Program-made: the position numbers and the translations under genes
Notes under the pieces: model-generated
What the model saw: only the letters and a program-made list of their open reading frames with translations
What the model was told of the DNA's origin: nothing
Database searches by the model: none
IMG/VR virus record: IMGVR_UViG_3300023184_000093
Coordinates: 9,000 to 72,999 of that record
Strand: one strand, 5' to 3'
Length of the DNA: 64,000 bases
Origin: a virus
Shown: positions 4,636 through 29,976 of the stretch, one piece after another
How positions within the stretch are numbered: the stretch's first letter is position 1
How the letters are laid out: each line of letters begins with the position of its first letter

Positions 4636-4666
4636 ATACGTATAATTAATTTAAGGAATATTAAAA

Positions 4667-5437: not shown

Positions 5438-5440
5438 TCT

Positions 5441-6415
5441 ATGTTAGATATAAGTCATCTTGCCGGTAATCCTAAGTATGATGTACAGGTATTTTATGCA
5501 AACTCTCCTGTGGCAGGTGCAAACTGGGCTACTTGGGTTAAACCACGTGGCATTAACTTTGTACAATTTTTTGTATTATCAGGAGGATGTGGCGGAGGCA
5601 GTGGTACAGTAGGTGCGGCAAGTACAGCAGGCGGTGGTGCTGGTGGTCCTTCTGGATCGCAGGCCATTGTTACTTTTCCAGCGTGGGCAATACCAGATAT
5701 ATTATACATCTCAGTGGGCAATGGTGGACTTGGTGGTGCAGCAGTTAATACAAACCCAGGCTTAGTTGGGGTAGCAGGTGTTGCTAGTCATGTTGCTATA
5801 TATCCTGATACTGCTTTAACTGCACAAAATTTATTAATTAAAGTTAATGCCGGTGTGGTTGGTGCCGCCGCAGCTCTTGCTGTAGGTGGCACGGTTGGTA
5901 CTGCTGCTGCTATTACTCTAGTTTCCGCATCACCTTTAGCTGCTCTAGGAACATTTTATTCATCGGCTGTTCTTAGTCTTAACATTGCTGGGCTAACTGG
6001 TACCGCAGGTGGTGCTGCTATTGCTGCTGCTGCTTTTTCATTAGGTACAACTGGTTTAATAGTTACACCCGGAACTGGTGGTGCTGGTCTTGGAGCAGCA
6101 GCTTCTGTTGGTCTTACCGGCGGCAATATTACCGGTGCTGGTATATTTCCTACATTACCGGGTGGTCTTGCTGGTGGCACAACAACTGCATCTGGTGGTG
6201 CTGGTTCTAATGGTATTCAACCGATACGTGGACTATGGTTCTTTTATGGTGGAACCGGTGGTGCCAGTTCTGGTGGTGCTGGTGGTAGTGGTGGCAGAGG
6301 CGGTGACGGTGCTTATGGCAGCGGCGGTGGCGGCGGCGGTGGTGCATTCACTGGTAATTTTAGTGGAGCAGGCGGCAAGGGCGGCGACGGTATAGTAGTT
6401 GCCACCAGCTGGTAA
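5441..6415 (+). CDS. Glycine-rich virion protein
   Basis: 'WVKPRG..FFVLSGGCGGG' start and 'GGKGGDGIVVATSW' end are typical of phage Gly-rich domains. Confidence 0.7.
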   Translation: MLDISHLAGNPKYDVQVFYANSPVAGANWATWVKPRGINFVQFFVLSGGCGGGSGTVGAASTAGGGAGGPSGSQAIVTFPAWAIPDILYISVGNGGLGGAAVNTNPGLVGVAGVASHVAIYPDTALTAQNLLIKVNAGVVGAAAALAVGGTVGTAAAITLVSASPLAALGTFYSSAVLSLNIAGLTGTAGGAAIAAAAFSLGTTGLIVTPGTGGAGLGAAASVGLTGGNITGAGIFPTLPGGLAGGTTTASGGAGSNGIQPIRGLWFFYGGTGGASSGGAGGSGGRGGDGAYGSGGGGGGGAFTGNFSGAGGKGGDGIVVATSW

Positions 6416-12216: not shown

Positions 12217-15200
12217 ATGCCATATGATTTAGGGGTAATTAAAAGACAACGTAGAGAACCACCTGTTATTTCCACCAGTACCTATGGTGGAAATTTTGTG
12301 GGATTTTATTCTACAGGTATAGGTGATAATATTAATTATTATGCTGTCCATGTATTCACCTCATCGGGGCAATTCACCAAACCTAGTTATGTAACTACTA
12401 CCACTGCACAGGTATTGGTAGTTGCTGGTGGCGGCGGGGGTGGTCTTGCAGGTGGTATTAGTACTAGTCCCGGCGGTGGTGGCGGGGCTGGGGGTGTCAT
12501 AAATTCTTCGACATATTCTATCACTGCCACATTAACTATATTAATTGGCGCCGGTGGGCCAGCGGCAGGAGGAGACGTCGACCCGGCAATAGGCACAGGA
12601 AGTGCTAGTACTGTAACTAATGGTGTTACCATACTTGTAGCATCAGGCGGCGGTCGCGGTGGCTATAATTATAGCACTGGAATAGATCCTCAGGCATCAG
12701 GTGGTGCAGGCGGTTCAGGAGGCGGCGGCTCCTATGCTGGATTTGGGCTCGGCGGAGCCAGCACCAGCACACAAGGTAATATTGGTGGTACTGGTAATGC
12801 AGGTTATACCGGTTCACCTCTTTATGCAGGTGGTGGAGGTGGGGCTGGTGCAGTTGGTGGTTCTGCAAATGCCAGTGCTTCGGGTCAAGGTGGATCAGGT
12901 ACGATTACCCTTATTACAGGATCTCCAATTTGGCTAGCAGGTGGAGGTGGCGGTGGTGCCAACGCAACTGGATACAACAACGGTAGTTATGGCGGTGGAG
13001 GCCCCGGTGGTACTACATCGGCGGTTGCTGGAGTAGCAGGAACAACTAACTCAGGTGGTGGTGGTGGTGGTGGCGGTGGTACTACCGGTGCTGGCGGATC
13101 AGGTGGTAGTGGTATTGTTATCATAAGCTATGCCATCCCTGCAAACTTATATCCAATAAATCAATCTGATCCATACTTTGGCAACAATTCCTTATTGTTA
13201 AATTCTTTAGCTTTATTACCAGCAGCAAGTTTGAATAAAATTTCTAGCATAATTTCAGACCTTAGTTTAAATCAATATGCTGTGACTAATAATGGTTCAC
13301 TAACTGGCAAATTAAATCCATTTGCCCCGGGGCCATATCATAGCCTTTATTTCAATGGCAATAATTTTATAAGTATAGCAACAATAAATGCAATGCCTGC
13401 AACTACTACAGATTTTACCGTAGAGTTTTGGATGTATACAGTATCATCTGATAACATTACTAATCATTGGTTAATTGGAACAATTGTAACTAATGGATTT
13501 TATGTTTTTCATCGCAATAATTATATTAATATTGGACAAGTTGGCGTAATTACATATACATCGCCAGCTGTATTTTCATTAAATCAGTGGACACATGTTG
13601 CTATTGTTAGAGCTAGTAATATTTTTTATATATATCAAAATGGAACTTCTGTTTTTACACAATCATGGAATCCAACATTAGTAGCTGGTGGAGTTTATAT
13701 CGGTGGTGCTTCTAGTCAAAATGCATTCCATACAGGATATCTTTCAAATGTTAGAGTTGTATCATCTGTGGTGTATACAGGTAATTTTGCAATACCCACT
13801 GAACCATTGAGCACTGTACAAAATGCATCATCAAACAATATATCAGTAATTACAGCAGGTACTACGTTATTAACAGGTAGATTTGCCACAACTTCAACAA
13901 GTATAGTTGATTACAGTACTCTTACAAATTCCATGGTTAATTTTGGAGTCACTCCCAGTAGCTTAAATCCATTTAATAATTTAAATTCTTATAGTGTTAG
14001 TTTTAATAATAGTTCTTTAAGTGCAACAAAAACAAATGGTTGGGTATCAGGTAATTACACTGTAGAAGCATGGGTATATTTAAACACAGTTACTAATGCA
14101 TCGAATAGTATGTTGATAGCCGGAACATATGGTTATGGAAACATAATACCTTACATGTTCGGTTGGGAATTAACAATCAACAATTATTTAATAACACTTA
14201 ACTTTCAATCTGATACCACTGGTTATAACCCTATTAAAATAAAAACATTAGCCACCACTGCAATAAACACTGGTGGACAACTTCTTACAGATATTAGTTT
14301 ATATAATGCTCCTCTAAACATATCTTCCAACCTTTCTCAATCCCTAGAAAGTTGGATATTTCCAACAAATCCATTTAATAATAGATATGGTAGTTTTGCA
14401 AATATGGCGATGTACAATTCTCTATATAACTTTAACTATGGCCCCGTTTCTCGTCCTAGAATGGACACCATACCGAGTTTCGATGGAGCCACCCGGACTT
14501 TTACACTCGAAGCATGGATATTTATGGACCCAAATTTGCCAGTTTTCAACCTTGCTGGACCTATTATTCAAGGTGTTGATTGGGCATTTGGTATTGGCAA
14601 CAACGGTACTGCATGTAAGTTACAATTTGTGTATAGAAGGTGGAACTCATCAAGTGCCACTAGAGACTTCTATCCATATCTTGAAGGTCCTAATAATAAG
14701 AGCATGACCAGCACAGCATCTGTACCAATAGGACAATGGGTACATGTAGCGTTTGTGAAGAATGTAAATCCTATCTACCCTAGTTTTTATATAAATGGAG
14801 TTCAAGAAATTAGTAACACCGGGTTCTATTATACCGGCGGCGACTATATGAACCCAGACAACACTTATGCTCAAGTTGGTGGTGTCGGGCTTCTTTCTTA
14901 TGTTACAACCGGTAATATTGGTACTACTGGATATTTGGATATGAATGCAAAATTGTTCGCTTTTATATCCAATGTTAGGTTAGTTCAAGGAGTAGCAGTA
15001 TATACTGGTAATTTTACCGTACCTACTGATAATTTAACCATTACACAATCTAGCGGGACAAACATATCTGCTATTGTTTCTAACACTGCTACAACTCTTT
15101 TAACAGCAGTTACCACAGCCTCTATAACACAACAAGTATTTTCAACAAGCACTTGGTATCATGTTGCATTTACAAAATCATCAAATATTGTCTCACTATA

Positions 15201-18200
15201 TGTTAATGGCGTTGGTTATGCATCATTAACATTACCTGATTCTAATTTTCAAGAAAAAAACATATTACAAATTGGAAAATCATATTCCCCAAACAATATC
15301 TTCCTGGGCACCTTTTATGGAACTCCGTTATATGGGAATATCAGCAACTTTAGAATCGTTAATGGTACTGTGGTATATCCTGGAAACTTTACTGTACCTA
15401 ATGGACCATTACAATTAACACAGGTTGCCAACGCATATGGTGGAACCAATACCGCTGCCATTTCTAATGCAACCTCTGTTACTTTCTTAACAGCAAAATA
15501 TTATTCTTATGTGGGGCTACTTCTTGGATTTAATGACGCTGGATCAAATAATCTAGTTGTTACACCAACCGGTAATCCAGGACAAGGAACATTCAGTCCA
15601 TTTGGTAACAATTGGAGTATGTTGTTTAATGGTACCACTGATCATTTAAGCATACCTATTGCAAATTCATCTAATTCTGGTACATCATTTGCATTGGCGT
15701 TTAATAATAATAATTGGACTATAGAAACTTGGGCATATCTTACTGCAAATGCAGGTACTGCATATATTGCCGGTCAATATAATACCAGTAATTATTCTCC
15801 TTTGGGATTATATATTACTGGAAATAAACCCGCAGTTGGAGTATCAAATGCAGGTACATTATGGAATATTAACCCCACATCACCTAATGTATTATCAACA
15901 GGTACATGGAATCATATTGCCGCAGTACGTAATGGTGGTAGATATAGTCTTTATGTTAATGGAATAGAGCAAATATTTGCTGTTAGTTCAGTTCCCACAG
16001 TTGACAATAGTGTCAATGCTGGAGTATTAGTTGCAACTAATACAATTAATTCTGCACTAAATCCATTTGATCAAAGTATATATAATAGTTTATATTTTGA
16101 TGGTGGAAGTTATTTAAATTTATCAGCTAATGCAGGATACAACTTTGGTACTGGTGATTTTACCATAGAATGTTGGATATATCCATTAGCATATGTCGTT
16201 GGATCGGCAACTGCTTCGGAAATTATTGACCTTTGGTCAAATGCAAGCGGCAGTTTTATAGTTGGACAATGGCAGATACAAATTAGTGCCGCTGGTTTAA
16301 TTCAATTCCCATACGCTACTGGTGCTGCTGGTGCTGCAACGCTTACATCAATTGCAATCATAACATTAAACGCTTGGTCACATGTTGCTGTAGTTCGTTC
16401 AGGATCGGCTGTAGGCAATCTTAAAATATATTTAAATGGAGCTGTTGTTGCAACTAGTGCCGGAGCAGTGATACAAAATATAGGTAGTACCGGGGCAGGT
16501 TCAATTGGTAAACAAACCAATGTTGCAAGTATTCCTTATTGTTATAATGGTTACATATCAAATGTACGTATAGTTAAAGGACAGGCATTATATACTGCTT
16601 CATTTGTGCCACCTGCCTCCTCAATAGGTGTTGTACAAGTCGGTGTAGCTGGTGGTGGACTGGCAACTTCTACTTCTACAAATACCACACAACTATTAGT
16701 TGGTAAATTTATCGATCAACGATATTTCTTTGATGATTATAGTTTAAACAATTTTACACTGACAAATAATGGAGGAGTTAGTGCTGCTACTTTATATCCA
16801 CCTATTAACTCAACTAGTACATTTAATAGTATGTACTTTAATGGTACAACACAATATCTAACAATCCCCAATGCTACGGCGATCACACTTAACACTGGTG
16901 ATTTTACTATAGAGGCATGGGTATATACTACAGTATTAAACGGACAAAATGGTATATTTGGTAAAAGAGAATTACTGCAATACTATGGTGTAATATTCCG
17001 TGTTCTTAATAGTACAAATAAACTGGTCATGCAAATTGCATCTGATACAGGTAATACATGGGCAATTGATGCTAATCTTGATTTTGGATTACCTGCATTA
17101 ACAATAAACACATGGTATCATGTGGCATTAGTAAGAAATGGTAGTTCTTTTAGAATATATCAAAATGGTGTAGGTGGAACAATCTATACCTATGCCGGCC
17201 TTATCGCACACAATACTGCACCTGGATATATTGGTAAATCAGACGGATCAGGTGGAGGACAATTTTGGAATGGATATATTTCTAACTTTAGAATTGTAAA
17301 AGGTGTTGCAGTATATACAAATAATTTCACAGTACCCACAGGACCATTAAACAATGCACAAGTTGCTAATCCATACGGAGGATTTAATACACAGGGCATC
17401 AATAATAACGGCACAAGTATATTAATAGCAAAATCATCTTCCTTGATCAATGAAGGCAATGTTGCTGTAGACTATAGTATTGTTCCTAATTATATGACCA
17501 GTGCAGTCAGGCCTACAGTTAATAATTTCTTTCCACCTATTGGTTCAACTAGTACATATTATAATAGTTTATTTTTTGATGGTACTCAAAGTCTTACTCT
17601 GACAGCACCACAAACTTCACTTTCGTTTGGTACCACTGGCGAATTTACCATAGAAATGTGGGTATATCCTACAGCTCTTGCACTCGATGGCATCGCAGCA
17701 GGTTTAATAGATGCAAGGGCAGGCCAAAGCGGGTCACCTTGGGCTCTTGATTTAACATTGTCTGGTGGTAATATGTACCTTCATATGACAGTGAACACTG
17801 GTGGTGGCCCTACGGGTGTTACTCCAATACCACTAAACAATTGGACACATATAGTTTTTACAAAACAAAACGGTGCAATAAAATATTATGTCAATGGTGC
17901 CTTAGATATTTCTAGTACTTCTAATGCTAATACATCTCCGTTAGATGCAGGAAGTGCTACTCAAGTAATAGGAAGAAATAACGAAAGTGGACGTTTTTTC
18001 AAAGGTTATATTTCTAACTTAAGAATAGTAAAAGGTCTAGCAGTTTATACAGGGCCATTTACTATACCTACTCGACCATTAACAATTACACAAACCGCCA
18101 ACCCCTACGGTGGTAGTAATGTACAGGCAATATCCACTGGTACCTACACATCGTTATTAACCATATTACCTGTTAACGTTAGTAATATAGTTGATTATAG

Positions 18201-21200
18201 TACTAACACATCCGTGATAACCATAGGGTCAGGTACAGTTAGTTTAAGTACATTGGATCCATTCATTGCAAGTACTTATAATTTACATAGCGTTTATTTT
18301 AATGGTAATAGTTCATTGTCTCTTACTTCTTCAAGGCTAGCACTAGGCAGTTTGTTGTTCAACGGTACCAGTCAGACTCTTACCTTTTCGGCACAAACTG
18401 CACTTTCGTTTGGCACTGGAGATTTAACCATAGAAATGTGGGTTTATCCTACCTCGCTTGCACCTGATGGTATATATGCAGGGTTAATAGATGCAAGATC
18501 AGGATCTGGAAACACGTCGTGGAATGTTGGCTTATTTGTATCTGCAGGTAATATGTATGCTTACATGCAAATAATAGGAGCCACAGGAAATCCATCGGGT
18601 ACTACTATAATTCCATTAAATGCTTGGACACATATAGCCTGGACAAGACAAAGTTCTACATTTAAAATTTTTGTTAATGGTGTTGTTGATTATACTGCTA
18701 GTGAGACTCGTGCAATTGATGCCGGAGGTACTAGTCAAACAATAGGAAGACATAATGAAGCAGGTCGTTATTATCGTGGTTATATTTCTACCTTGAGAAT
18801 TGTTAAAGGTACCGCAGTTTATACATCATCCTTTAATCCATTATTACAAGTAATTGGTAATATTGTTAACACATCATTGCTATTATTAGTTACTAGCGAT
18901 GCCAATAAAATAATAGATTCAAGCAGCACTCCGGTTACATTAACTAATAATGGTGCTGTTTCTTTTAGTTCCGTGACGGTTCCGCCAGCCCCGCAATATT
19001 GGTTATATAGTGATCACACAGTAGAGTCATGGGTATATTTAAACTCGTCTACAATTACAACTAATAATATAACAAGTAATATGTTAATAGCCGGAACATA
19101 TGATGGTGCGACTACTACCGGCTGGGAATGGACAATCAATCCTTATGTGATGACACTTAATTATAGAAATTCTGGAGTAGTAATATCTTTTGGTACAAGT
19201 CAATTACCTATTCTTAGCCAGGTTATTGCAGACAGAGGTGGAATTGGTCTAAGTCCAACAAACACAGCGGTAACATTAAGTCCTGCAAGTCCTCTTTCTG
19301 ATGGTTATGGAAGTTTATATTTTAACGGTACAAATGCCCAAATAACAAACCCAAAAAATAGTGGATTCGATTATGGATCAGGAAGTTTTACTATTGAATC
19401 TTGGGTATACTATCTTGGCACAGTCGCCTCAACTACTATTATAGGTCATCAGGCTGGCCCAACTCCGGGAAGATCCTGGATGTTTACTATGCTAATTGCC
19501 GGCCACTTATATTTTGATTGGTCCTCAAATGGTAGTTATGGCACGCCCGGGTCTTTTGTTAGTTCTTCAACCGCTCCACTAAATCAATGGAATCATGTGG
19601 CATTTGTGAGAAATGGTACAATTTACACATTTTATATAAATGGTGTTGCTGCTGGCTCGGGTTCCATGACTGCTGGGATAGCGTTTCCAAATTCAGGGTC
19701 ATTGGCCATTGGTTATACTGCAAATGAAACCACAAGCGGACAATCATTTTTTAAAGGGTATATATCTAACCTACGTGTAGTTAAAGGACTGGCAGTATAT
19801 ACTGGTAATTTTACACCCACTGGGCGATTAACTTCTACACAAGTTGCCGGTACAAATATACAAGCAATATTAACTGCAAGTTATACCAGCATTTTATTGG
19901 CGGCAAATCCAGCAGTTTCTTCTCAAACATTTGCACTAAACACATGGCATCATGTAGTATTCACAAGACAAGGCACTACCTCTACAATGTATATTAATGG
20001 TGTTCAAACAACATCAACTGTGATCAGTGGATATACCGATCAATATACTCTCCGCCTTGGATACATAGGATTTACTAGCCCTACATCATCCTACCTAACA
20101 GGATATCTTAGTAACTTTAGAATAGTCAATGGTGTAGCGGTGTATACAGGAACAAACTTTCTTCCACCCACTGGTGTATTAACTTTACAACAACCAGCTA
20201 ACCCGTTTGGTGGAACAAATACTAATGCTATTACAGATACTAATAATATTAGAATTTCAACATTGGCATTTAGTGGTGTTACCATAACACCATATAATAC
20301 CAATTCAAATATGTTGATAGGTAGAGCAGGATCTGGTATAACCAGCGTGTTTCCTGGATATCTATCTAATTTTAGAATAGTCAATGGTACCGCAGTGTAT
20401 ACTGGTAATTTTACTGCACCTAGAGCACCATTATCATTACTTAAGAATACTAGTTTGTTAATTGCCGCTAGTAGCTGGTATGTAGATAAAAGTCCATATA
20501 ATTTTCAAATCAGCACTGGAACGGTGAGTAGTGTGCCTGCTATAACAAAATTCACACCTTACAAAATACCCGGTGAATATAATAGATCTATAGTTGGTGG
20601 TAGTATATATTTTAATACAACAACAGCAGCTGGACAGAATTTAAGTCTTGGTTCGCCTAGCTCATTGGCATTAGGTAGCGGAAATTATACAGTAGAATGT
20701 TGGATATATATTAATGCATATAATACATTAAACAGTGTTATTATAGATTGGCGTACTAATGCGGGCACCACTGCCGGTGTACCTGTATTATATCTATTAG
20801 CCAATGGAACTATACAATGGCAAAATACTGGCGGCACAGGTCTTTTAACTTCAGCTGTAACTTCACCTATCTCTGATCGTATAATATTGAATACATGGAA
20901 TCATATTGCCATGGTTAGATATAATTCAATGTTGTATATGTATATCAATGGTGTGGTTGTAGCCAATGTAGCAGATTCTACAGCATTAACAATTCAAACA
21001 CTTTTCATTAATAGTCCCATTACAGCCAGCAATCAAACATTGTTTGGTTATGTATCTAATGTTAGAATACTAGCAGGAACAGCTTTGTATGTACCAAGTA
21101 TAGTTGTTCCAACTACAACTTTAACAGTTCTTCCTGACACGGCGTTATTGGCATTAAAAACCAATGCAACTTTAATTAAAGATAATTCACAGAATAATTT

Positions 21201-24200
21201 TTTTATAGCAGACTCAACTAGTACAACAATTCAAAGAGTATTCACACCGTTTGGTGGTAGTGGTAGTGCATTTTTTGGTAATAGAAATACATTCTTAACT
21301 ATTAGTAGTAGTACAAATTCAGCGTTTGCATTGGGCACCAACGATTTTACTTTAGAAGCCTGGGTATATCAAACGGAACGTAATATATATTTTGGATCAT
21401 TAATTGTTGGAGCACTTACCTATAATGTATCTCTTCTTTCTTCAGATTGGCATTGGATAATTGATCCTAGTGGATATCTAAATTTTCAGTCAGGGTATCC
21501 TGCAGTTTATAGTGCAACATCAAATGTTAAAGTTCCATTAAATGTGTGGACACATGTTTCGTTTGTAAGAAATTTTGGATCACCTTCTTTCTATATAAAT
21601 GGAAAGAGTGCAGGTGGTTCTCTTTCAAATTCTACTAGAAATTCAGCAGCCGGTAGTTTATGGTGGGATAATGACGTTGATCTTTATAAAAATACGTCTG
21701 TATATATTAGTACCTCAACCGTTTCAATGTATGATAATTATACCTCCGATGAATGGAGTTTCTTACATAACGGCCAGCAAGATTATACAATTGATCTTTG
21801 GGTTTATTCTAGTTCGTTGTGGGGTGGGTATGCATGGGACGACCCTCTCATCAACCCCTCGTCAACTTCTATTATCAATACTGGGCACTTATCAACGCCA
21901 ATAGGCTTATACATTACTGATTTTGGTGCAGTTAATTTAGCAACTAATTTTGCTCCTTATTATATGTTTACCGTACCTCCTGGACAAGCCCCAAATGATT
22001 TAGCCGGTACTTGGGGCACTAAAATAAGTGGATCACTTTGGTATGGAATTTCTAATGCCACTGAATATATTGGTGTTTACGCAGGTGCTGGATCTATTCA
22101 ACCAAATATATGGAATCATATAGCAGTAACATTTAAATCTAGCACCAAAGAAATAAAACTTTTTATAAATGGAAAAAATCAATCTGTAACTGTACATAGA
22201 ATGTTAACCAATGGAGCGACCGCTAGTGGAAGTTTTTCATATCCTACTGGTCCTTCGAAGTATACTTTAGGAGTAGGCGGCGCACCCTTCTCTGGATATA
22301 TGACAAATATACGTATAACTAAATCCATTGTATACACCACTGACTATACTATAGTAATACCTACACCTAATATTACTAATGCCATAACATTATTATTAGT
22401 TAATAGTAATGCCAATAAATTTTTAGATTCTAGTGATGGTAATAGGCCACTGCGTTTTGATACTACTGCCAACCCTATTATCTACAGCCCTACATTTAGT
22501 AACAATGTACCATCTATTGTAGTTAATGCGGTAGGATCTACTTTAAGTTTGAATTTTAATGGCAGTTCATATCTAACAGTTCCTTCTAATCCAATATTTG
22601 CATTTGGTACTGGAGATTTCACTGTTGAATGTTGGTGGTATCAAAGCGTGGCCAATACAGATCGAGGGTTTTTAAGCAGCATAGCAGCTACAACTGGCAC
22701 ACCTGCCGTCGGTATACAATTAGCAGGCAACGGTGCATTTACTGGTTTGAATACAGGTGGATCATTTGACACATTCTCATGGACACTACCACTAAGTCAA
22801 TGGAATCATGTAGCCTTTGTTAGAATTAATGGAATAGCATATGCTTATGTAAATGGTGTGCTCGCATCATCTGGTCCTACTACCCTAGGTAATAATTTAG
22901 TTGGTTCTGGATTTGTTATAGGATGCTCATATACTAATAATTTTAGTTTTCTAGCAGTTGGTTATATTTCTAATGTGCGAGTAGTTAAAGGTCTAGGAGT
23001 ATATAACAATAACTTTATTAAACCAACTTCAACATTAACTAATATCACAAATACTGTATTATTATTAAATGTGAACTCATCCGGTAATTATCTAAAAGAT
23101 GATAGCACTACTAATTTTTCTCCTATTACAATTACAGGAAATGTAACTTATAATGCCAGCACACCGTTTAGTTCTGGTGGCAGTTTAGCTTTTGATCAGG
23201 GTGGAGCAGCATCACGCTTGACTTTACCTAGTTCCACAGCATTTAATTTAACTGGTAATTTTACATTAGAAGCATGGATATACCCTACATATTTACTATC
23301 AGGTGGCAATGGAATATTTGATGCCAGAGTTACTGGTGCATCTGCTCTACCGTGGGCTTGGTATGTTGACGGTCCTACTAAGGCACTAGCGTTTTTCAAT
23401 GGAACATATTATATAGGTACTACTCCTATTACTACAAGTACCTGGACACATATTGCTGCCACAAGATCAGGTAGTAATTTTAGAATGTATGTTAATGGTA
23501 TTTTAGATTATACCGCTAGCATAACTGGTGCAATAAGCCCTGGATCTACAAGTGCAGTAGTTGGTATAAAAGATGATAATCTTATCAACTACAAACCAAT
23601 TAATTATATTACTAATTTAAGAATAGTTAATGGTACAGCACTATATACTGGTACTTTTACGGTACCTACTCTCGAATTACAAACTACTCAGCAAGGAACA
23701 GGCACTTATATAAGTGCAATTTTTACCGCAAGTTATGTTTCGTTATTAACAGCACAACACTATGCTATAGCAGATATCAGCGTATTTAATAATTCTATAA
23801 CTAATAATAATGCAGTTAGTGTTTCTAACACAGTGAAACCAGCTCTTACTTTTGATCTAGCAAATGCTAATTTTATTAATACACAAAATATTAATATTGG
23901 AGGGCATGAAAATACTACAGCAACCGCGTTTAGAGGTTACATGAGTAATTTACATGTTGTAAAAGGTCAGGCCAAATATGGTAATGCTTTTAAAACACCT
24001 ACTACTGATTTTACCACACTTACTAATAGTGTATTATTAACAATGTTAAGTACAGATACTAGGTTTGTAGATTACTCAGCCAATGCATTTACTATAACTA
24101 ATACTTCTACATCATTACAAGGATTCTCACCATTTGATGTAAATTATAGTACATATTTTAATGGTACTAGTTATATAAGTATTGGTGACTCATTACCTCT

Positions 24201-27200
24201 TAATCTTTCATCTAGTACAAATTGGACCATAGAAACTTGGGTAAATCCATTAGGAAATTATAGTGTTAACAATAGTATATTATTTGCAAAACGTAATGCT
24301 AGTGCTGGAGCACCTCTTTACAATAGTTTGTATTTTAATGGAACTTCAAATCTAACAGTTACTTCATCAAATTCACCAGGATTTGTTGGTGCTGGTGAAG
24401 ACACTATTGAATGTTGGGTTAATTTTTCATCTTTTACACTTGGCTCTCGCCACGTAATTTTCCAAATTTATAACGGTAATTCAACTTATAACGGAACAAG
24501 TCTAACTTATAGACCCACAGATGGTAATACTGGTACGTTTATTGCTAGTATAGGGAATTCATCAGGGATTAATTCACAGGAGATCTATAGTAATACTGTT
24601 ATTGTAGTTACAAATAAATGGTACCATGTAGCTCTCCAAGCAAATAATCAAGGAGTCTACGCGACCCAAATTGTTCATTCATTGTATCTTAATGGAACTC
24701 CTATTATACTTTATGATTCTTTTGTATCCATCCAGCCCCCCAGTGATTTTTACAATCCGGATAGATCAGCAGATATAGTGCTATCTATAGGAGCAGCATT
24801 ATCAACATATGCAGGGACTGTCAACCTAATAGGTTACATATCAAACTTTAGAATAGTTAACGGTATAGCATTATATAACAGTTTAGTTGATAGGTTAAAT
24901 GACAGTGTTTACCCAATTAAAACAGTAAACAATGTCCCAGAAACTGGACATTTGACATATACAGGTAAGGTTAATATCCCCCTACTACCATTTGGTACCA
25001 CACAACTTGCTAATCCTTCCGGGGGCATTAATACCCGGGCATTATCAACTTCAAGCTATACTACATTATTAGTAGGTAGATTCACAGGAGGTCTTGATTC
25101 TATTGTTGACTATAGTGATTATAATTTATCTATAGTTAATAATTCTGTTGTGGTTTCTACACTTGCTAATAATCAAGTTGGAAGTTTATATTTTAATGGC
25201 AGTTCATATTTAACAGCACCAGTTGGAGCAAGTACATTTGGTACAGGTGATTTTACGGTTGAATGTTGGTTCTATAAAACAGCGGCCCTGAATAGCACAT
25301 TATTAAGCAATGTGCCAAGTGGTGTTGATATTAATTATTGGGCATTATCTACCTATGCTGATGGACATTGTCAATTTACAATAAGAGATGCTAGTCAAAT
25401 ATTTGTTACTGGTAGTATAATCACTGCAATTAACACATGGGTTCATCTAGCGGTAACAAGAACATCTGGACTTGTTAAATTGTTTGTTAATGGTGTATTA
25501 GATAATTCAGGGACTATTACTAAAACCGTTACTGCTAGAATAACTGTTATTGGGGCTTTCTTATATACTGGATATTTGTCGTATTTCCAAGGTTATATGT
25601 CTAATGTTAGAATAGTAACCGGTGCCGCAGTGTATACCACTGCATTTATTAAACCATATGCACCATTGAGCAATACACAAACTTCTAATACAAGTGGTCT
25701 TCCAAGTATAGCAATTCCATCTTTAAATTATAGTGCATCATTTGATGGAAGCACACAATATTTGTATGTTCCAACTACTACTGATATGGTGCTTGGTACT
25801 GGAGATTTTACTATAGAACTATGGGTATATTTGAATGCTGCACCGGCGTCTGGCAAAGTGTTTCTAATGTTAGATTTTAGACCTGCTCTTACACCTAGTA
25901 CAGCGGCCGGATATATTAACTTCTACGTTAGCCCAAGTTTACAAATTGGGGCAAATCTTGCTGCATTTTCTTATGGAGGTGGAACTGCATTGGCTCTTAG
26001 TACCTGGTATCATGTAGCTTTGGTCAGACGAAATAGTAATTCAAATATATATATTAATGGATCGGCTATTGGAGGAGGAATTACTGATACAAATAATTAT
26101 CTCGGTGCAACAAATAGACCAGTAATTGGCACAGATAGTAATTCTGTGTTAGCAGCTGGATATTCTTTAAATGGTTACATCTCTAACCTAAGAATAGTAA
26201 AAGGCATTAGTGCATACGCAGGTAACTTTACCAAGCCAACTAGTTCACTAACTCTTAGCCAGGTTCCATCGGGTAATATACTTAGAATTCCTGCAAGTTT
26301 GAATACATTAACTTATAAAATTTTCTCAATCACTGGAAACACTGGAAACAATGCAACAAATGGATATATAAAACTAGGGAATGGTAACATATACTTTAAT
26401 TTATATGATATTTGGTCAGCAGAATGTTGGTTCTATTCCCCCACTGGTTCATCATTTGGTCAAATTATGGGAACACGGAGCAGCTTGAATGCTGGATATG
26501 CTGCTTTTCTCTTTGCAGAAGTTAATAATGTATTACAATTTTATTCTTCTTCTAACGCCTCTAGTTGGGATTTGTTTAATACGCCAGTTAATACTGTTGC
26601 AACCATAACACCAAATACATGGCATCACATAGCGGTTAGTAGAACTACTACTACAATGTATGTTTATTATGATGGAACAGTATCACTTACACGTGACCTT
26701 ACAGGAATTGGATTTTCTGGATCTCAACATAACATTTATATGGGTGCAGGCGATTATTTAAACCAGGGCAGCGATAGTTGGACAGGATATATTGCTGATT
26801 TTAGATTTGTTACTGGTGAAACTCCGTATACTGGTACAAATTTTACTCCTCCTAGTATACCATTAGAAGCTACACAAGAAAAGTCTGGTCAAATTGGACC
26901 AATTGTATTTACAACCTCAACACGTTTTTTAGTTGGCGGAACACTTCCAACTCCAGGCTACTCGCTTGGTCTAGGAGCACTAACTATTGCTGATCGTAGT
27001 TATTATCAGAATCCTGAAGTAACACGATGGCCATCCTTTTTTCCAGGTTCTGTTGGTACCTCAGTAGCTGGTATATTAGGTGGAACTACTCCTGGATTCC
27101 CTACACTTACTCCAAATTATACTACTTTATTAACATTGCAATCACCAATTGTTGCAAATACTTCTAATAATAATGTTAGCATTGTTAATATAGGTACTGT

Positions 27201-29049
27201 TCTTACTACAACTAAAAATCCTTTTGGTGCAGCAGCAACTAGTTTGTTAACAGCAAATTTTGTTGATGAAAATATATCCATTGTTGATTCATCAGGAAAT
27301 TCATTTGCTATTACTAATGTTGGTGGAGTTACTACTTCTACTGCATTAAATCCATTTGCAGCAGCATATGGATCGGCAACTGCATCTTATGAAGGATATT
27401 TAAATAGCGGTACAGGCTTTTTAGGATTCTTTGACGGAACAACTTACTCAACATCTACAACGGCATTAACTAGTGGTATATGGAGTCACGTTGCTTATAC
27501 ATATGATGGTACCGCTATTCCACCTAGTGTTAATATCTACGTAAATGGCGTCCGTGTTCATCAAACTTCTACACTTTCAATTCAAGATAATCAGGAAACT
27601 TTATACATTGGTGGTGCTTCAGGTGTTATTGAACATTTTTATGGAAATATGAGTAATTTTAGAATAATTAAAGATTATTCATTATATCTTGGATCTTATT
27701 TTGGCGACATTCCTAAATCAATTTTAACCACAAATATTAATACTATTCCTTATCCAAATACATCTACTATTGCTAGCAGTGTATCATTATTAACATTACA
27801 AAGAGGTTCAATTAATGATAATTCAACCTATCAAAATACTGTGTCATTTGGTGGAACACCAACCACTGTATTAATCTCTCCATTTGGAAGTTCTACAATT
27901 ATAAGTACATATTTTAATAGTGGAACAAATTATTTGACTATATCTGCACAAAACGCTTTAAGTTTAGGTGTTGGTGATTTCACTGTAGAGGTATGGGTAT
28001 ATCCAACAGCACCACAGAGTACACTAGCTGGATATTATTCGTCAATTCTTGATGCAAGAGCAAGTGTAGGAGGTATACCATGGATAGTTTCATTAATAAC
28101 TATTGCTGGTGGTGCTCTTAAAGCAATCTTTTATGATGGAACCCAACGTACAGCATCAACTACTGTGCCATTAGGAACTTGGACACATATAGCATGGACA
28201 AGAACAAATTCTATATTAAGAATATTTGTTAACGGTGTAGTAGATTATGTATTAACTAATCACACAATTAATCTATCTGCTGGTACAACTCAATATATAG
28301 GAAGACTGTATGATGGTAATCCTCATTGGTATCAAGGTTATATATCTAATTTAAGAGTAGTTAAAGGTACTTCATTATATACAGGAAACTTTGTTCCATC
28401 ACAAATACCTTTAACTTCAGTAGCAGGTACTTCAACTAATTTATTAACAAACTTTGTTGATACCAGAGCCTTTGATTATTCAGGTAATACAGTAATTAAA
28501 GCAAATACAAGTTCGGTGACTTTAGTAAATTCAGTGGCTAAAAATAATTTATATAGTATTGGATTTAATGGAAGTACTGATTTTATAACTGTTTCTAGCA
28601 GTACAGGATTTATTTACAACGCCAATGATTTTACTTGGGAACTGTGGGTATATCCTACAAGTCCAATTTGGGCTACCACCTCAACATACTTTATAGAACA
28701 TGGTATTAATGGTGGAAGTTTAAGATATGCCAACAATAAAGTTTTCTACTATAACATAAGTACGGCTACTTCTACCGCTAGTACCGTATTAAGTATTAGT
28801 TCATCTACATGGACACATATAGCAGTGGCTAGATCTAGTGGTCTTACATCCTTATTTGTCAATGGATCCTTTGTAGTTAACACTCCTGATTATTATAGTT
28901 ACAATACAGCAACAATTGTAACTATTGGAAATACCAGCACTGCTTCAAGAAACTATTTCCAAGGATATATAGAAGATTTACGTATTACTAAAGGTGTGGC
29001 ACGTTATTCATCAACTTTTGTACCACCTATAAAATTATCTAATAGATAA
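12217..29049 (+). CDS. Giant fibre/adhesin protein: N-terminal Gly-rich domain plus about 22 LamG/ConA-like domains
   Basis: 5610-aa uninterrupted ORF; LamG signature motifs counted by eye. Confidence 0.9.
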   Translation: MPYDLGVIKRQRREPPVISTSTYGGNFVGFYSTGIGDNINYYAVHVFTSSGQFTKPSYVTTTTAQVLVVAGGGGGGLAGGISTSPGGGGGAGGVINSSTYSITATLTILIGAGGPAAGGDVDPAIGTGSASTVTNGVTILVASGGGRGGYNYSTGIDPQASGGAGGSGGGGSYAGFGLGGASTSTQGNIGGTGNAGYTGSPLYAGGGGGAGAVGGSANASASGQGGSGTITLITGSPIWLAGGGGGGANATGYNNGSYGGGGPGGTTSAVAGVAGTTNSGGGGGGGGGTTGAGGSGGSGIVIISYAIPANLYPINQSDPYFGNNSLLLNSLALLPAASLNKISSIISDLSLNQYAVTNNGSLTGKLNPFAPGPYHSLYFNGNNFISIATINAMPATTTDFTVEFWMYTVSSDNITNHWLIGTIVTNGFYVFHRNNYINIGQVGVITYTSPAVFSLNQWTHVAIVRASNIFYIYQNGTSVFTQSWNPTLVAGGVYIGGASSQNAFHTGYLSNVRVVSSVVYTGNFAIPTEPLSTVQNASSNNISVITAGTTLLTGRFATTSTSIVDYSTLTNSMVNFGVTPSSLNPFNNLNSYSVSFNNSSLSATKTNGWVSGNYTVEAWVYLNTVTNASNSMLIAGTYGYGNIIPYMFGWELTINNYLITLNFQSDTTGYNPIKIKTLATTAINTGGQLLTDISLYNAPLNISSNLSQSLESWIFPTNPFNNRYGSFANMAMYNSLYNFNYGPVSRPRMDTIPSFDGATRTFTLEAWIFMDPNLPVFNLAGPIIQGVDWAFGIGNNGTACKLQFVYRRWNSSSATRDFYPYLEGPNNKSMTSTASVPIGQWVHVAFVKNVNPIYPSFYINGVQEISNTGFYYTGGDYMNPDNTYAQVGGVGLLSYVTTGNIGTTGYLDMNAKLFAFISNVRLVQGVAVYTGNFTVPTDNLTITQSSGTNISAIVSNTATTLLTAVTTASITQQVFSTSTWYHVAFTKSSNIVSLYVNGVGYASLTLPDSNFQEKNILQIGKSYSPNNIFLGTFYGTPLYGNISNFRIVNGTVVYPGNFTVPNGPLQLTQVANAYGGTNTAAISNATSVTFLTAKYYSYVGLLLGFNDAGSNNLVVTPTGNPGQGTFSPFGNNWSMLFNGTTDHLSIPIANSSNSGTSFALAFNNNNWTIETWAYLTANAGTAYIAGQYNTSNYSPLGLYITGNKPAVGVSNAGTLWNINPTSPNVLSTGTWNHIAAVRNGGRYSLYVNGIEQIFAVSSVPTVDNSVNAGVLVATNTINSALNPFDQSIYNSLYFDGGSYLNLSANAGYNFGTGDFTIECWIYPLAYVVGSATASEIIDLWSNASGSFIVGQWQIQISAAGLIQFPYATGAAGAATLTSIAIITLNAWSHVAVVRSGSAVGNLKIYLNGAVVATSAGAVIQNIGSTGAGSIGKQTNVASIPYCYNGYISNVRIVKGQALYTASFVPPASSIGVVQVGVAGGGLATSTSTNTTQLLVGKFIDQRYFFDDYSLNNFTLTNNGGVSAATLYPPINSTSTFNSMYFNGTTQYLTIPNATAITLNTGDFTIEAWVYTTVLNGQNGIFGKRELLQYYGVIFRVLNSTNKLVMQIASDTGNTWAIDANLDFGLPALTINTWYHVALVRNGSSFRIYQNGVGGTIYTYAGLIAHNTAPGYIGKSDGSGGGQFWNGYISNFRIVKGVAVYTNNFTVPTGPLNNAQVANPYGGFNTQGINNNGTSILIAKSSSLINEGNVAVDYSIVPNYMTSAVRPTVNNFFPPIGSTSTYYNSLFFDGTQSLTLTAPQTSLSFGTTGEFTIEMWVYPTALALDGIAAGLIDARAGQSGSPWALDLTLSGGNMYLHMTVNTGGGPTGVTPIPLNNWTHIVFTKQNGAIKYYVNGALDISSTSNANTSPLDAGSATQVIGRNNESGRFFKGYISNLRIVKGLAVYTGPFTIPTRPLTITQTANPYGGSNVQAISTGTYTSLLTILPVNVSNIVDYSTNTSVITIGSGTVSLSTLDPFIASTYNLHSVYFNGNSSLSLTSSRLALGSLLFNGTSQTLTFSAQTALSFGTGDLTIEMWVYPTSLAPDGIYAGLIDARSGSGNTSWNVGLFVSAGNMYAYMQIIGATGNPSGTTIIPLNAWTHIAWTRQSSTFKIFVNGVVDYTASETRAIDAGGTSQTIGRHNEAGRYYRGYISTLRIVKGTAVYTSSFNPLLQVIGNIVNTSLLLLVTSDANKIIDSSSTPVTLTNNGAVSFSSVTVPPAPQYWLYSDHTVESWVYLNSSTITTNNITSNMLIAGTYDGATTTGWEWTINPYVMTLNYRNSGVVISFGTSQLPILSQVIADRGGIGLSPTNTAVTLSPASPLSDGYGSLYFNGTNAQITNPKNSGFDYGSGSFTIESWVYYLGTVASTTIIGHQAGPTPGRSWMFTMLIAGHLYFDWSSNGSYGTPGSFVSSSTAPLNQWNHVAFVRNGTIYTFYINGVAAGSGSMTAGIAFPNSGSLAIGYTANETTSGQSFFKGYISNLRVVKGLAVYTGNFTPTGRLTSTQVAGTNIQAILTASYTSILLAANPAVSSQTFALNTWHHVVFTRQGTTSTMYINGVQTTSTVISGYTDQYTLRLGYIGFTSPTSSYLTGYLSNFRIVNGVAVYTGTNFLPPTGVLTLQQPANPFGGTNTNAITDTNNIRISTLAFSGVTITPYNTNSNMLIGRAGSGITSVFPGYLSNFRIVNGTAVYTGNFTAPRAPLSLLKNTSLLIAASSWYVDKSPYNFQISTGTVSSVPAITKFTPYKIPGEYNRSIVGGSIYFNTTTAAGQNLSLGSPSSLALGSGNYTVECWIYINAYNTLNSVIIDWRTNAGTTAGVPVLYLLANGTIQWQNTGGTGLLTSAVTSPISDRIILNTWNHIAMVRYNSMLYMYINGVVVANVADSTALTIQTLFINSPITASNQTLFGYVSNVRILAGTALYVPSIVVPTTTLTVLPDTALLALKTNATLIKDNSQNNFFIADSTSTTIQRVFTPFGGSGSAFFGNRNTFLTISSSTNSAFALGTNDFTLEAWVYQTERNIYFGSLIVGALTYNVSLLSSDWHWIIDPSGYLNFQSGYPAVYSATSNVKVPLNVWTHVSFVRNFGSPSFYINGKSAGGSLSNSTRNSAAGSLWWDNDVDLYKNTSVYISTSTVSMYDNYTSDEWSFLHNGQQDYTIDLWVYSSSLWGGYAWDDPLINPSSTSIINTGHLSTPIGLYITDFGAVNLATNFAPYYMFTVPPGQAPNDLAGTWGTKISGSLWYGISNATEYIGVYAGAGSIQPNIWNHIAVTFKSSTKEIKLFINGKNQSVTVHRMLTNGATASGSFSYPTGPSKYTLGVGGAPFSGYMTNIRITKSIVYTTDYTIVIPTPNITNAITLLLVNSNANKFLDSSDGNRPLRFDTTANPIIYSPTFSNNVPSIVVNAVGSTLSLNFNGSSYLTVPSNPIFAFGTGDFTVECWWYQSVANTDRGFLSSIAATTGTPAVGIQLAGNGAFTGLNTGGSFDTFSWTLPLSQWNHVAFVRINGIAYAYVNGVLASSGPTTLGNNLVGSGFVIGCSYTNNFSFLAVGYISNVRVVKGLGVYNNNFIKPTSTLTNITNTVLLLNVNSSGNYLKDDSTTNFSPITITGNVTYNASTPFSSGGSLAFDQGGAASRLTLPSSTAFNLTGNFTLEAWIYPTYLLSGGNGIFDARVTGASALPWAWYVDGPTKALAFFNGTYYIGTTPITTSTWTHIAATRSGSNFRMYVNGILDYTASITGAISPGSTSAVVGIKDDNLINYKPINYITNLRIVNGTALYTGTFTVPTLELQTTQQGTGTYISAIFTASYVSLLTAQHYAIADISVFNNSITNNNAVSVSNTVKPALTFDLANANFINTQNINIGGHENTTATAFRGYMSNLHVVKGQAKYGNAFKTPTTDFTTLTNSVLLTMLSTDTRFVDYSANAFTITNTSTSLQGFSPFDVNYSTYFNGTSYISIGDSLPLNLSSSTNWTIETWVNPLGNYSVNNSILFAKRNASAGAPLYNSLYFNGTSNLTVTSSNSPGFVGAGEDTIECWVNFSSFTLGSRHVIFQIYNGNSTYNGTSLTYRPTDGNTGTFIASIGNSSGINSQEIYSNTVIVVTNKWYHVALQANNQGVYATQIVHSLYLNGTPIILYDSFVSIQPPSDFYNPDRSADIVLSIGAALSTYAGTVNLIGYISNFRIVNGIALYNSLVDRLNDSVYPIKTVNNVPETGHLTYTGKVNIPLLPFGTTQLANPSGGINTRALSTSSYTTLLVGRFTGGLDSIVDYSDYNLSIVNNSVVVSTLANNQVGSLYFNGSSYLTAPVGASTFGTGDFTVECWFYKTAALNSTLLSNVPSGVDINYWALSTYADGHCQFTIRDASQIFVTGSIITAINTWVHLAVTRTSGLVKLFVNGVLDNSGTITKTVTARITVIGAFLYTGYLSYFQGYMSNVRIVTGAAVYTTAFIKPYAPLSNTQTSNTSGLPSIAIPSLNYSASFDGSTQYLYVPTTTDMVLGTGDFTIELWVYLNAAPASGKVFLMLDFRPALTPSTAAGYINFYVSPSLQIGANLAAFSYGGGTALALSTWYHVALVRRNSNSNIYINGSAIGGGITDTNNYLGATNRPVIGTDSNSVLAAGYSLNGYISNLRIVKGISAYAGNFTKPTSSLTLSQVPSGNILRIPASLNTLTYKIFSITGNTGNNATNGYIKLGNGNIYFNLYDIWSAECWFYSPTGSSFGQIMGTRSSLNAGYAAFLFAEVNNVLQFYSSSNASSWDLFNTPVNTVATITPNTWHHIAVSRTTTTMYVYYDGTVSLTRDLTGIGFSGSQHNIYMGAGDYLNQGSDSWTGYIADFRFVTGETPYTGTNFTPPSIPLEATQEKSGQIGPIVFTTSTRFLVGGTLPTPGYSLGLGALTIADRSYYQNPEVTRWPSFFPGSVGTSVAGILGGTTPGFPTLTPNYTTLLTLQSPIVANTSNNNVSIVNIGTVLTTTKNPFGAAATSLLTANFVDENISIVDSSGNSFAITNVGGVTTSTALNPFAAAYGSATASYEGYLNSGTGFLGFFDGTTYSTSTTALTSGIWSHVAYTYDGTAIPPSVNIYVNGVRVHQTSTLSIQDNQETLYIGGASGVIEHFYGNMSNFRIIKDYSLYLGSYFGDIPKSILTTNINTIPYPNTSTIASSVSLLTLQRGSINDNSTYQNTVSFGGTPTTVLISPFGSSTIISTYFNSGTNYLTISAQNALSLGVGDFTVEVWVYPTAPQSTLAGYYSSILDARASVGGIPWIVSLITIAGGALKAIFYDGTQRTASTTVPLGTWTHIAWTRTNSILRIFVNGVVDYVLTNHTINLSAGTTQYIGRLYDGNPHWYQGYISNLRVVKGTSLYTGNFVPSQIPLTSVAGTSTNLLTNFVDTRAFDYSGNTVIKANTSSVTLVNSVAKNNLYSIGFNGSTDFITVSSSTGFIYNANDFTWELWVYPTSPIWATTSTYFIEHGINGGSLRYANNKVFYYNISTATSTASTVLSISSSTWTHIAVARSSGLTSLFVNGSFVVNTPDYYSYNTATIVTIGNTSTASRNYFQGYIEDLRITKGVARYSSTFVPPIKLSNR

Positions 29050-29070
29050 TTATACCGAATAAATATATAT

Positions 29071-29907
29071 ATGACAGCTATTAATTTTCCAACAACATCA
29101 ACTAACGGTACGGTTTTCTCATTTGGTGAAAGAACCTGGACTTGGGTGGGTAACGAAACTGGATTTTGGAAAGCCACAAGTACAACATTAGGTTATACAG
29201 GTAGTACAGGATACACAGGTAGTAGGGGTGTTCCTGGTCCTAGCGGATCTGCTACTAATCCTTGGTTTAGTACATCAACTAATTATACAGCAATAGATGG
29301 TGATAGAATCATATTGAATAACACTTATGAAGCGTTTAGTATAACATTACCTGCAATTGCCAGCATCGGTACATATATACAAATGACAGATGGTAATGAT
29401 CTAAGTAATGGAAATCCAGTTACTGTACTAAGAAATGGTAATACTATAGAAGGTGCCGCTAACGATATAAGTTTAGATCTTAAAGGTAGTACATTTGAAT
29501 TTGTATACAATGGTTCAACCTGGCAGGTTACTGCTACGGGTGGTCCAAAGGGTGCAATTGGATACACTGGCAGTGTTGGTGCTAATACTATCACACTACA
29601 ACAACCAGGAAATTTAGTAACGTTTGTCGGAACGGCTCGATGGTATGCTCCATTTGCTTGTAATGTAACATCTGTAAAACCCAGGGTTAGAATTGCACCT
29701 GATGCTGTTGTTAGTATAAATTTATGTAAAAATGGATTCGCTATATCAAATATAAACATATCAACAGGGCAAACATCAGGTACAGCTGACACAACTGGTT
29801 ATGTACTAGCCTCAGGTGATTATTTAACTGTTAATGTTTTATCGGTAGGATCAACATCGTATCCGGGTGTTGATTTGTATGTACAATTACAATACCAACC
29901 GATTTAA
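29071..29907 (+). CDS. Virion structural/fibre protein with short GYTGS collagen-like linkers
   Basis: 'MTAINFP...TWTW...WKA' N-terminus; 'ITLPA...VTVLRNGNTIEG...FEFVYNGSTWQV' fibre repeat. Confidence 0.7.
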   Translation: MTAINFPTTSTNGTVFSFGERTWTWVGNETGFWKATSTTLGYTGSTGYTGSRGVPGPSGSATNPWFSTSTNYTAIDGDRIILNNTYEAFSITLPAIASIGTYIQMTDGNDLSNGNPVTVLRNGNTIEGAANDISLDLKGSTFEFVYNGSTWQVTATGGPKGAIGYTGSVGANTITLQQPGNLVTFVGTARWYAPFACNVTSVKPRVRIAPDAVVSINLCKNGFAISNINISTGQTSGTADTTGYVLASGDYLTVNVLSVGSTSYPGVDLYVQLQYQPI

Positions 29908-29976
29908 TATTAAACTGGATTTTAGGCATAAATACAATAAAATTGCAGCATTGTCTGCGTATATAACGGAAAAATT

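Follow-up and report, generated by a model that had tools for sequence, protein, structure and literature searches.

Laminin_G_3 domains nested within Laminin_G_3 domains in a giant protein of a metagenomic virus

The stretch of DNA analysed here (the window) spans 64,000 nucleotides of a 72,999-base metagenomic virus record in IMG/VR (IMGVR_UViG_3300023184_000093, positions 9,000 to 72,999), for which CheckV gives a completeness of 21%. On its + strand, an open reading frame (ORF) at 12217..29049 encodes a single polypeptide of 5610 residues, hereafter P0001, in a frame that is unbroken over 16.8 kb. P0001 consists of an N-terminal Gly_rich_2 head (PF21722, 58.3 bits, residues 48-305) followed by about 22 Laminin_G_3 (LamG) domains. 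Scanned as two halves, the protein scores 510 and 500.1 bits against Laminin_G_3 (PF13385), over 10 and 12 stretches respectively; the Pfam gathering cut-offs are 27.6 bits for this family and 24.3 bits for Gly_rich_2. An initial annotation of the window had noticed that LamG motifs in this protein break off and resume further on like nested brackets, and had read this as LamG domains inserted inside LamG domains. Our analysis confirms the nesting and supports this interpretation of the architecture.

We trained a profile hidden Markov model (HMM) of 203 positions on 14 uninterrupted LamG copies of P0001. Run against the whole protein, it returns 29 matches, some full-length and some partial, and the partial ones are complementary in profile coordinates and ordered like nested brackets. 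They define five split domains, A to E (hosts), in each of which complementary partial matches surround complete LamG domains (guests). Host A is formed by residues 590-660 (profile positions 8-82, from nucleotide ~13984) and 966-1089 (87-201, from 15112), with one full copy (residues 731-961) enclosed. The two pieces of host B, residues 1132-1264 (9-133, from 15610) and 2691-2751 (128-189, from 20287), enclose six domains. One of these six, host C, is itself interrupted twice, by full copies at residues 2039-2229 and 2356-2560, and comes in three pieces (residues 2015-2039, positions 1-26; 2251-2327, 19-91; 2556-2678, 80-200). The nesting is three levels deep, with C inside B and two guests inside C. 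Host D (residues 3016-3158, positions 10-135, from 21262; and 3885-3946, positions 129-191) encloses three domains. Host E (residues 3975-4023, positions 8-57, from 24139; and 5059-5189, positions 71-192, from ~27391) holds four full copies, after which tandem 'TLL..NPF' elements lie at residues 4967-5004 and 5007-5048. The initial annotation had placed a host opening at ~13987 and resuming at ~15130 around one domain, one opening at ~15613 around six domains of which one was split twice, one at ~21262 around three and one at ~24145 around four, with three levels of nesting; for all five hosts the HMM pieces fall within a few codons of these positions.

Beside almost every LamG core lies an element of about 40 residues, 'T.LL..D.S.N...NPF', which we call L. 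The gene is laid out as follows, with residues in brackets, profile positions given as hmm, and the source of each call at the end of the line.

12217..29049, + strand: ORF of P0001, Gly_rich_2 head and about 22 LamG domains
12358..13131, + strand: N-terminal Gly_rich_2 (48-305); PF21722, 58.3 bits
13201..13857, + strand: first uninterrupted unit, L and LamG core (329-547); HMM
13858..14241, + strand: host A N piece with its L (548-675; hmm 8-82); HMM, Pfam 7-64
14242..15111, + strand: guest of host A (676-965), missing in the orthologous domain of P0004, P0006 and P0007
15112..15483, + strand: host A C piece (966-1089; hmm 87-201); HMM, Pfam 72-142
15472..15990, + strand: host B N piece with its L (1086-1258; hmm 9-133); HMM, Pfam 2-102
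16000..18159, + strand: host B guests g1, g2 and g3, uninterrupted (1262-1981); HMM matches 1286-1492, 1529-1734 and 1775-1981
18142..18333, + strand: host C piece 1, level 2, L and first strand (1976-2039; hmm 1-26); HMM
18334..18999, + strand: host C guest 1, level 3, core and trailing L (2040-2261); only in P0001, P0004 and P0006
19000..19197, + strand: host C piece 2 (2262-2327; hmm 19-91); HMM
19198..19920, + strand: host C guest 2, level 3 (2328-2568), missing in P0007 and P0008
19921..20250, + strand: host C piece 3 (2569-2678; hmm 80-200); HMM, Pfam 75-143
20287..20469, + strand: host B C piece (2691-2751; hmm 128-189); HMM, Pfam 111-143, 14.7 bits
20449..21198, + strand: uninterrupted unit (2745-2994); HMM
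21139..21618, + strand: host D N piece with its L (2975-3134; hmm 10-135); HMM, Pfam 11-103
21619..23853, + strand: three guests of host D, L after each (3135-3879), the first aberrant; HMM
23854..24054, + strand: host D C piece (3880-3946; hmm 129-191); HMM, no Pfam match at E <= 1
24028..24294, + strand: host E N piece with its L (3938-4026; hmm 8-57); HMM, no Pfam match at E <= 1
24295..26904, + strand: four guest cores of host E (4027-4896), L directly after the first core only; HMM
26905..27360, + strand: tandem closing elements, a diverged stretch (4897-4966), then L (4967-5004; i-E 0.0096) and L (5007-5048; i-E 1e-9)
27364..27783, + strand: host E C piece (5050-5189; hmm 71-192); HMM, Pfam 52-141
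27778..29046, + strand: two uninterrupted terminal units (5188-5412 and 5405-5610), the last without trailing L at the protein end; HMM

The aberrant first guest of host D (21691-22389, residues 3159-3391) matches the profile well at positions 91-182 only, and a middle stretch of about 70 residues matches nothing.

All six junctions of P0001 are complementary to within 14 profile positions. For the background we paired N and C pieces at random (2000 draws) across a family set of 91 giant LamG proteins, obtained from a search limited to 3085-9818 residues. An absolute gap of at most 15 positions occurs in 17% of these random pairings compared to 57% of 74 stack-matched pairs; by arithmetic from the 17%, six such junctions in a row would arise by chance with a probability of ~2e-5. 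We also joined the pieces of each host in a script and scored the products with our own HMM only. Each host gives one full-length match: 104.1 bits for A (hmm 7-201), 113.6 for B (9-189), 116.2 for C (1-200), 104.1 for D (10-192) and 80.9 for E (8-193), every score being near the sum of the scores of its pieces. The prediction that rejoined halves would make an intact domain is therefore borne out at the profile level, at 81-116 bits. Pfam PF13385 matches seven of the ten host pieces, all truncated and complementary (A 7-64 and 72-142; B 2-102 and 111-143; C_C 75-143; D_N 11-103; E_C 52-141). It finds both halves of A and B and one truncated half each of C, D and E, and five of the seven matched pieces score above 27.6 bits.

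Among the 91 proteins, eight (P0002 to P0009, from the jgi, ena and lgn sources) are metagenomic orthologues of P0001 with 39-51% identity. As the initial annotation had suggested, we compared the presence of inserts across these relatives, and it varies at fixed loop sites. Host A is uninterrupted in P0004, P0006 and P0007, and its guest is carried only by P0001 and P0002. The inserts of host C are confined to the same two loops throughout: both are filled in P0001, P0004 and P0006, one in P0002, P0003, P0005 and P0009, and neither in P0007 and P0008. For host D, the number of guests is zero in P0007, one in P0003, two in P0002 and P0004, and three in P0001. The uninterrupted forms of A, C and D in the orthologues are single full-length matches of 95-144 bits. 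Contiguous homologues of host E are found in the more distant proteins P0014, P0019, P0028, P0027 and P0010 (N part 44-67% identical, C part 45-55%). None of the eight orthologues has host B in one piece; the two halves retain 48-67% and 64-71% identity while the number of enclosed domains varies.

A tree built from six scaffold blocks groups P0002 with P0004, P0006 with P0009 and P0005 with P0008. These sister pairs are 77-83% identical overall, yet differ by insertions and deletions the size of a module. Of the eight gaps of at least 50 residues between sisters, seven interrupt a domain that the other sister has in one piece (two of these seven are fragments of the host A guest, divided by the pairwise aligner), and the remaining one, 455 residues or two domains long, lies between domains. 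The initial annotation had proposed growth by insertion into loops rather than by end-to-end duplication. Insertion accounts for most of the long sister differences; the exclusion of end-to-end growth does not stand, since the 455-residue case indicates that growth has used both routes, insertion and addition between domains. Within a domain that is contiguous in P0009 (residues 3832-4023), P0006 (residues ~3838-4835) carries four additional full LamG copies, distributed over two or three sites; the two proteins are 79% identical overall.

The pieces of host C are 55-85% identical between orthologues. Guests at the same position of host C are only 36-42% identical in four of six comparisons at site 2 and in both comparisons at site 1, and belong to different LamG subtypes; the site-1 guest of P0001 is most like its upstream neighbour g3 (56% identity). 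Together with the sister differences, this indicates a turnover of guests, by gain, loss and replacement, that outpaces change in the scaffold. Site 1 of host C (18334-18999 in the window, compared with P0004 and P0006) differs along its length: the trailing L is conserved at 63-66% and the guest cores at only 36-41%, and the paralogue type that the core resembles differs among the three proteins. This pattern suggests that a core has been replaced between fixed flanks. We also considered a tandem duplication with shifted break points at this site and rejected it, as the 'S..F.G' strand is found only upstream of the guest. After the trailing L, host C resumes directly at its 'FT.E.W' strand, without an 'S..F.G' strand there.

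Split hosts are not confined to P0001 and its orthologues. A strict parse of the family finds 21 of the 91 proteins with at least one supported split host, 44 hosts in total, and the break sites cluster at profile positions ~55-75, 80-95 and 120-138. At the other end of the range, the copies of P0010 (32) and P0011 (29) are all parsed as uninterrupted.

We then folded the two halves of host B, which lie 1430 residues apart, as separate chains with ESMFold2 (B_N, 177 residues, and B_C, 87 residues, each with a 14-row alignment of paralogues from the window cut at the same point). The pair reaches an ipSAE of 0.82 (runs 0.81, 0.82 and 0.84) compared to 0.00 for the best of three controls; in the tool's calibration, 58 of 80 solved complexes and 2 of 110 mismatched pairs attained this mark. 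Contacts agree between runs to at least 71%, the partner pLDDT is at least 64, and the closest contacts are those between the 'WTIETWAY' strand of B_N and the 'GYLSNFRIV' strand of B_C. This model supports complementation of the two halves. A profile search of the PDB matches 4qvs_A (1.9e-15), 5hon_A (2.2e-11) and PAPP-A2 (2.4e-9); phmmer with one L-core-L unit against the PDB gave no match.

Based on these results, we consider it probable, at roughly 0.85, that the LamG domains of P0001 act both as beads and as sockets: the pieces of each host would form one jelly roll, and the guests would hang from its loops. We infer that whole LamG modules of ~200-240 residues (a core plus the ~40-residue L) entered a few surface loops of five hosts by in-frame insertion, and that C, itself an insert, went on to receive guests of its own. 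Every host, whether in two pieces or three, would fold into one jelly roll of the concanavalin-A-like kind. Because the ends of a LamG domain lie side by side, a complete module could be tolerated in the loop of another without pulling the host apart. With guests hanging from host loops, the thread of 22 domains would become a trunk of eight (F1, A, B, F2789, D, E, F5225 and F5439) with branches of 1, 6, 3 and 4 domains from A, B, D and E. For the physical assembly of host halves within this chain, the evidence is the two-chain model, which makes such assembly plausible.

Several observations weigh against this reading, and some of them would be expected if the partial matches were instead decayed or truncated LamG copies in a linear array, that is, recombination scars that do not fold together. 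Partial matches are common in the family: a coarse parse finds them in 45 of the 91 proteins, and only 15 of these 45 have balanced brackets. The same parse calls P0001 itself unbalanced, because two weak pieces of host C and part of the aberrant guest Dg1 fell outside its cut-offs, and the strict parse passes only two of the five P0001 hosts. Host C is weakly matched in its two small N-side pieces (i-E 0.0017 and 0.00018; 4.0 and 7.2 bits), and the HMM that detects them was derived from P0001's own copies. With Pfam, three of the ten host pieces (C_M, D_C and E_N) have no match at E <= 1 and two of the seven matched pieces lie below the gathering score. AlphaFold2 did not model host C confidently: host C with both guests (715 residues, 9-row alignment) gives a mean pLDDT of 47.4 and a pTM of 0.33, the host pieces reaching only ~33-58. 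Searched with Foldseek, the pieces in this weak model are LamG-like, with laminin and neurexin LG/LNS domains, PAPP-A, pentraxins and AbnA domain 4 as best matches. The pass of the two-chain fold can come from likeness to solved LamG folds, and its calibration is only rough, the paralogue alignments being self-made and cut from intact domains. Finally, host B has no uninterrupted orthologue among the eight close relatives, only paralogue-level matches of 34-44%. Decay nevertheless fits poorly with six of six junctions complementary within 14 positions against 17% of random pairings, with pieces that give one full-length match when rejoined and are found joined and guest-free in orthologues, and with the conservation of host pieces above guests, including both halves of host B in eight of eight orthologues. 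We consider it improbable.

Equally improbable, in our view, is an array with strand swapping or circular permutation that runs linearly in space, each domain combining the C part of a unit with the N part of the unit after it. The occurrence of L both before and after cores would suit such an arrangement, and an AlphaFold2 model of L-core-L builds the trailing and not the leading L, so that some exchange of edge strands between neighbours is possible. Adjacent halves, however, are not complementary in the profile (A_C 87-201 with B_N 9-133; D_C 129-191 with E_N 8-57; C_C 80-200 with B_C 128-189), so the pairing of halves with their immediate neighbours, which the initial annotation had named as an outcome that would count against nesting, fails. 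The uninterrupted orthologues show an ordinary N-to-C domain as the ancestral unit, and 5hon_A aligns L through core in the ordinary order. Least credible of all is that the nesting was created by metagenome assembly across repeats. The record is a metagenomic fragment with 21% completeness and the gene is highly repetitive at the protein level; the DNA repeats within the gene, however, are at most ~140 nucleotides long and 60-91% alike, short and diverged enough to make misassembly across them unlikely, and the frame is open over 16.8 kb. The eight orthologues belong to other assemblies and other sources, and have hosts B, C, D and E in common with P0001, broken at the same points. We rejected all three of these readings.

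The placement of L relative to its core differs along the protein. L precedes the core at the top level and in the interior of host B; inside D and E, and at site 1 of host C, it follows the core. The first core of P0001 is preceded by L, and no L follows the last, which closes the protein. The evidence on whether L is a leader or a tail conflicts. The solved single domain 5hon_A, matched in the PDB profile search, begins to align within L and continues across the core, with L first and the core second. In the modest AlphaFold2 model of L-core-L (mean pLDDT 61.4), the trailing L forms three strands (pLDDT 48-64) and the leading L is unstructured (34-45).

In the interior of host E, three cores follow one another without L, and tandem L elements then precede the resumption of the host. 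By HMM, this interior holds four cores and four L in four of seven proteins (P0002, P0004, P0007 and P0008); with F for a core and l for L, P0002 and P0004 read F l F F F l l l, and P0007 and P0008 read F l F F l F l l. Fewer L are detected in P0001, P0003 and P0005, where some are diverged or below detection. The balance of cores and L is consistent with delayed closure, in which late elements complete cores further upstream; the nesting would then be four levels deep. The initial annotation had described tails closing one after another in this host: the tandem elements are real and their counts balance in those four proteins, and the evidence conflicts as to which core each packs against. 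A bolder scheme, which we hold to be somewhat doubtful, is that the fixed loop sockets serve as recombination exchange points for lectin modules, yielding a branched, bush-like adhesin whose outer modules change faster than its trunk. L would then be a detachable edge strand that closes a core from either side, by circular permutation, and the three tandem L of host E would close the three leaderless cores, giving the four levels.

With respect to its genomic setting, the window is presumably a piece of a very large phage genome. The ribonucleotide reductase (RNR) of the record is 55-60% identical to those of large Xanthomonas, Stenotrophomonas and Ralstonia phages, and among the sequence searches for placement the RNR protein alone put the contig near large myoviruses. 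Megablast against the phage collection gave no match for the RNR genes or for nucleotides 13900-20400, and tblastn with residues 560-1100 gave none at E <= 1e-5. The Gp23 capsid family was not found in the record, a result that is uninformative as the same search was silent in 14 of 14 control genomes.

The neighbouring ORFs include a collagen-repeat ORF, a second giant LamG/Gly-rich ORF, small Gly_rich_2 ORFs, a PAAR/hub-like ORF, a fusion of glycosyltransferase and methyltransferase, and some with weak PHROG matches to tail-fibre families. Those with particular features are the following.

1-4635, + strand: collagen-repeat ORF, open at the 5′ end of the window, with collagen triple-helix repeats (204 bits, 8 stretches), immediately upstream of the fibre-like gene cluster
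6882-12194, + strand: second giant LamG/Gly_rich_2 protein, 1770 residues, LamG and Gly_rich_2 parts interleaved
35542-38913, + strand: 1123 residues, two glycosyltransferase domains fused to an FkbM-type methyltransferase, near the lectin-like giants
56580-57641, + strand: N-terminal PAAR motif and a weak match to a baseplate hub/tail lysozyme

In the 1770-residue protein, L and a lone LamG first strand (residues 1098-1117, weak, 1.2 bits) are followed by Gly_rich_2 (Pfam, residues 1117-1352) and then by a LamG core (1383-1555); another LamG (378-572) lies between glycine-rich stretches. This order may reflect insertion between different folds; alternatively, the lone strand could be a spare, since the later core matches from profile position 10. 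The ORFs at 6882 and 12217 share a start motif, M..DLG.I.RQR, within the first ~15 codons, which the other Gly_rich_2 ORFs do not have and which may be an attachment or assembly signal. Base composition changes over the LamG array: in window 14001-30000, G+C falls to 0.35-0.38 and GC skew is about zero, compared to a G+C of 0.39-0.42 and a skew of 0.10-0.21 upstream. Family membership and gene neighbourhood suggest that P0001 is a fibre or decoration of a large phage and that its domains bind carbohydrate. What the particle sticks to would then change as guests are gained, lost or swapped while the scaffold stays conserved.

Whatever its function, an architecture of this kind has practical consequences. 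Standard domain callers report the hosts as truncated or missing, so that the domain counts and lengths of giant phage proteins are misread. Close relatives with different loops filled amount to a natural experiment on permissive sites, useful for the engineering of LamG or lectin scaffolds. The arrangement also pushes the known limits of loop tolerance and co-translational folding, the two halves of host B being made 1430 residues apart. If P0001 is a virion fibre, a branched array changes the fibre length and valency to be expected, and if the socket scheme holds, it would offer a modular route to variation in host range or surface binding.

Linear giant LamG arrays such as P0010, P0011 and P0025 (the last named 'Concanavalin A-like lectin/glucanases superfamily [uncultured Caudovirales phage]' at NCBI) resemble P0001 in family (Laminin_G_3), repeat unit and size class (3000-8000 residues). 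They are beads on a string, whereas split hosts occur in P0001, in its eight orthologues and in 21 of the 91 family members overall. The tandem LG/LNS domains of laminin alpha chains and neurexins, PAPP-A, the pentraxins and AbnA domain 4 share the fold, and their domains are uninterrupted and separate; we know of no insertion of one LamG domain into another in laminin, neurexin, PAPP-A, pentraxin or AbnA modules. In the literature searched, which did not extend to the data tables of PMC13114784, we found no paper on nested LamG domains in phages.

That study reports domain insertions in 20% of multidomain proteins, most of them single-level, with 65.8% of events joining different structural groups, and concludes that inserts are consistently smaller than hosts (PMC13114784). 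P0001 resembles these A1-B-A2 insertions in that a host loop is interrupted by a complete guest with close ends, and differs from them in that host and guest are of the same family and of equal size. The closest parallel is Si3 of the cyanobacterial RNA polymerase beta' subunit: Prochlorococcus rpoC2 carries eight hybrid-motif domains in a recursive architecture of six levels, compared to three linear domains in E. coli (PMC13114784). In both Si3 and P0001, domains of one fold are repeatedly inserted into domains of the same fold within one chain. Si3 is made of a small hybrid motif in a core enzyme, whereas P0001 is a giant phage protein made of a LamG jelly roll of ~200 residues. P0001 also has five separate hosts per chain and up to six domains in one loop, and the filling of LamG loops varies between proteins only 17-23% apart, a variation for which we found no counterpart in Si3 in the part of PMC13114784 consulted. 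It is already known, then, that domain insertion is common and that the same fold can nest recursively, in Si3 (PMC13114784). In the literature searched, such recursive same-fold insertion is represented only by the small RNA polymerase motif, and here it involves a full-size jelly roll of 200 residues, five times per chain. What distinguishes P0001 is the size of the module, the number of hosts per chain, the accommodation of up to six domains in one loop, and the rapid turnover of guests among relatives.

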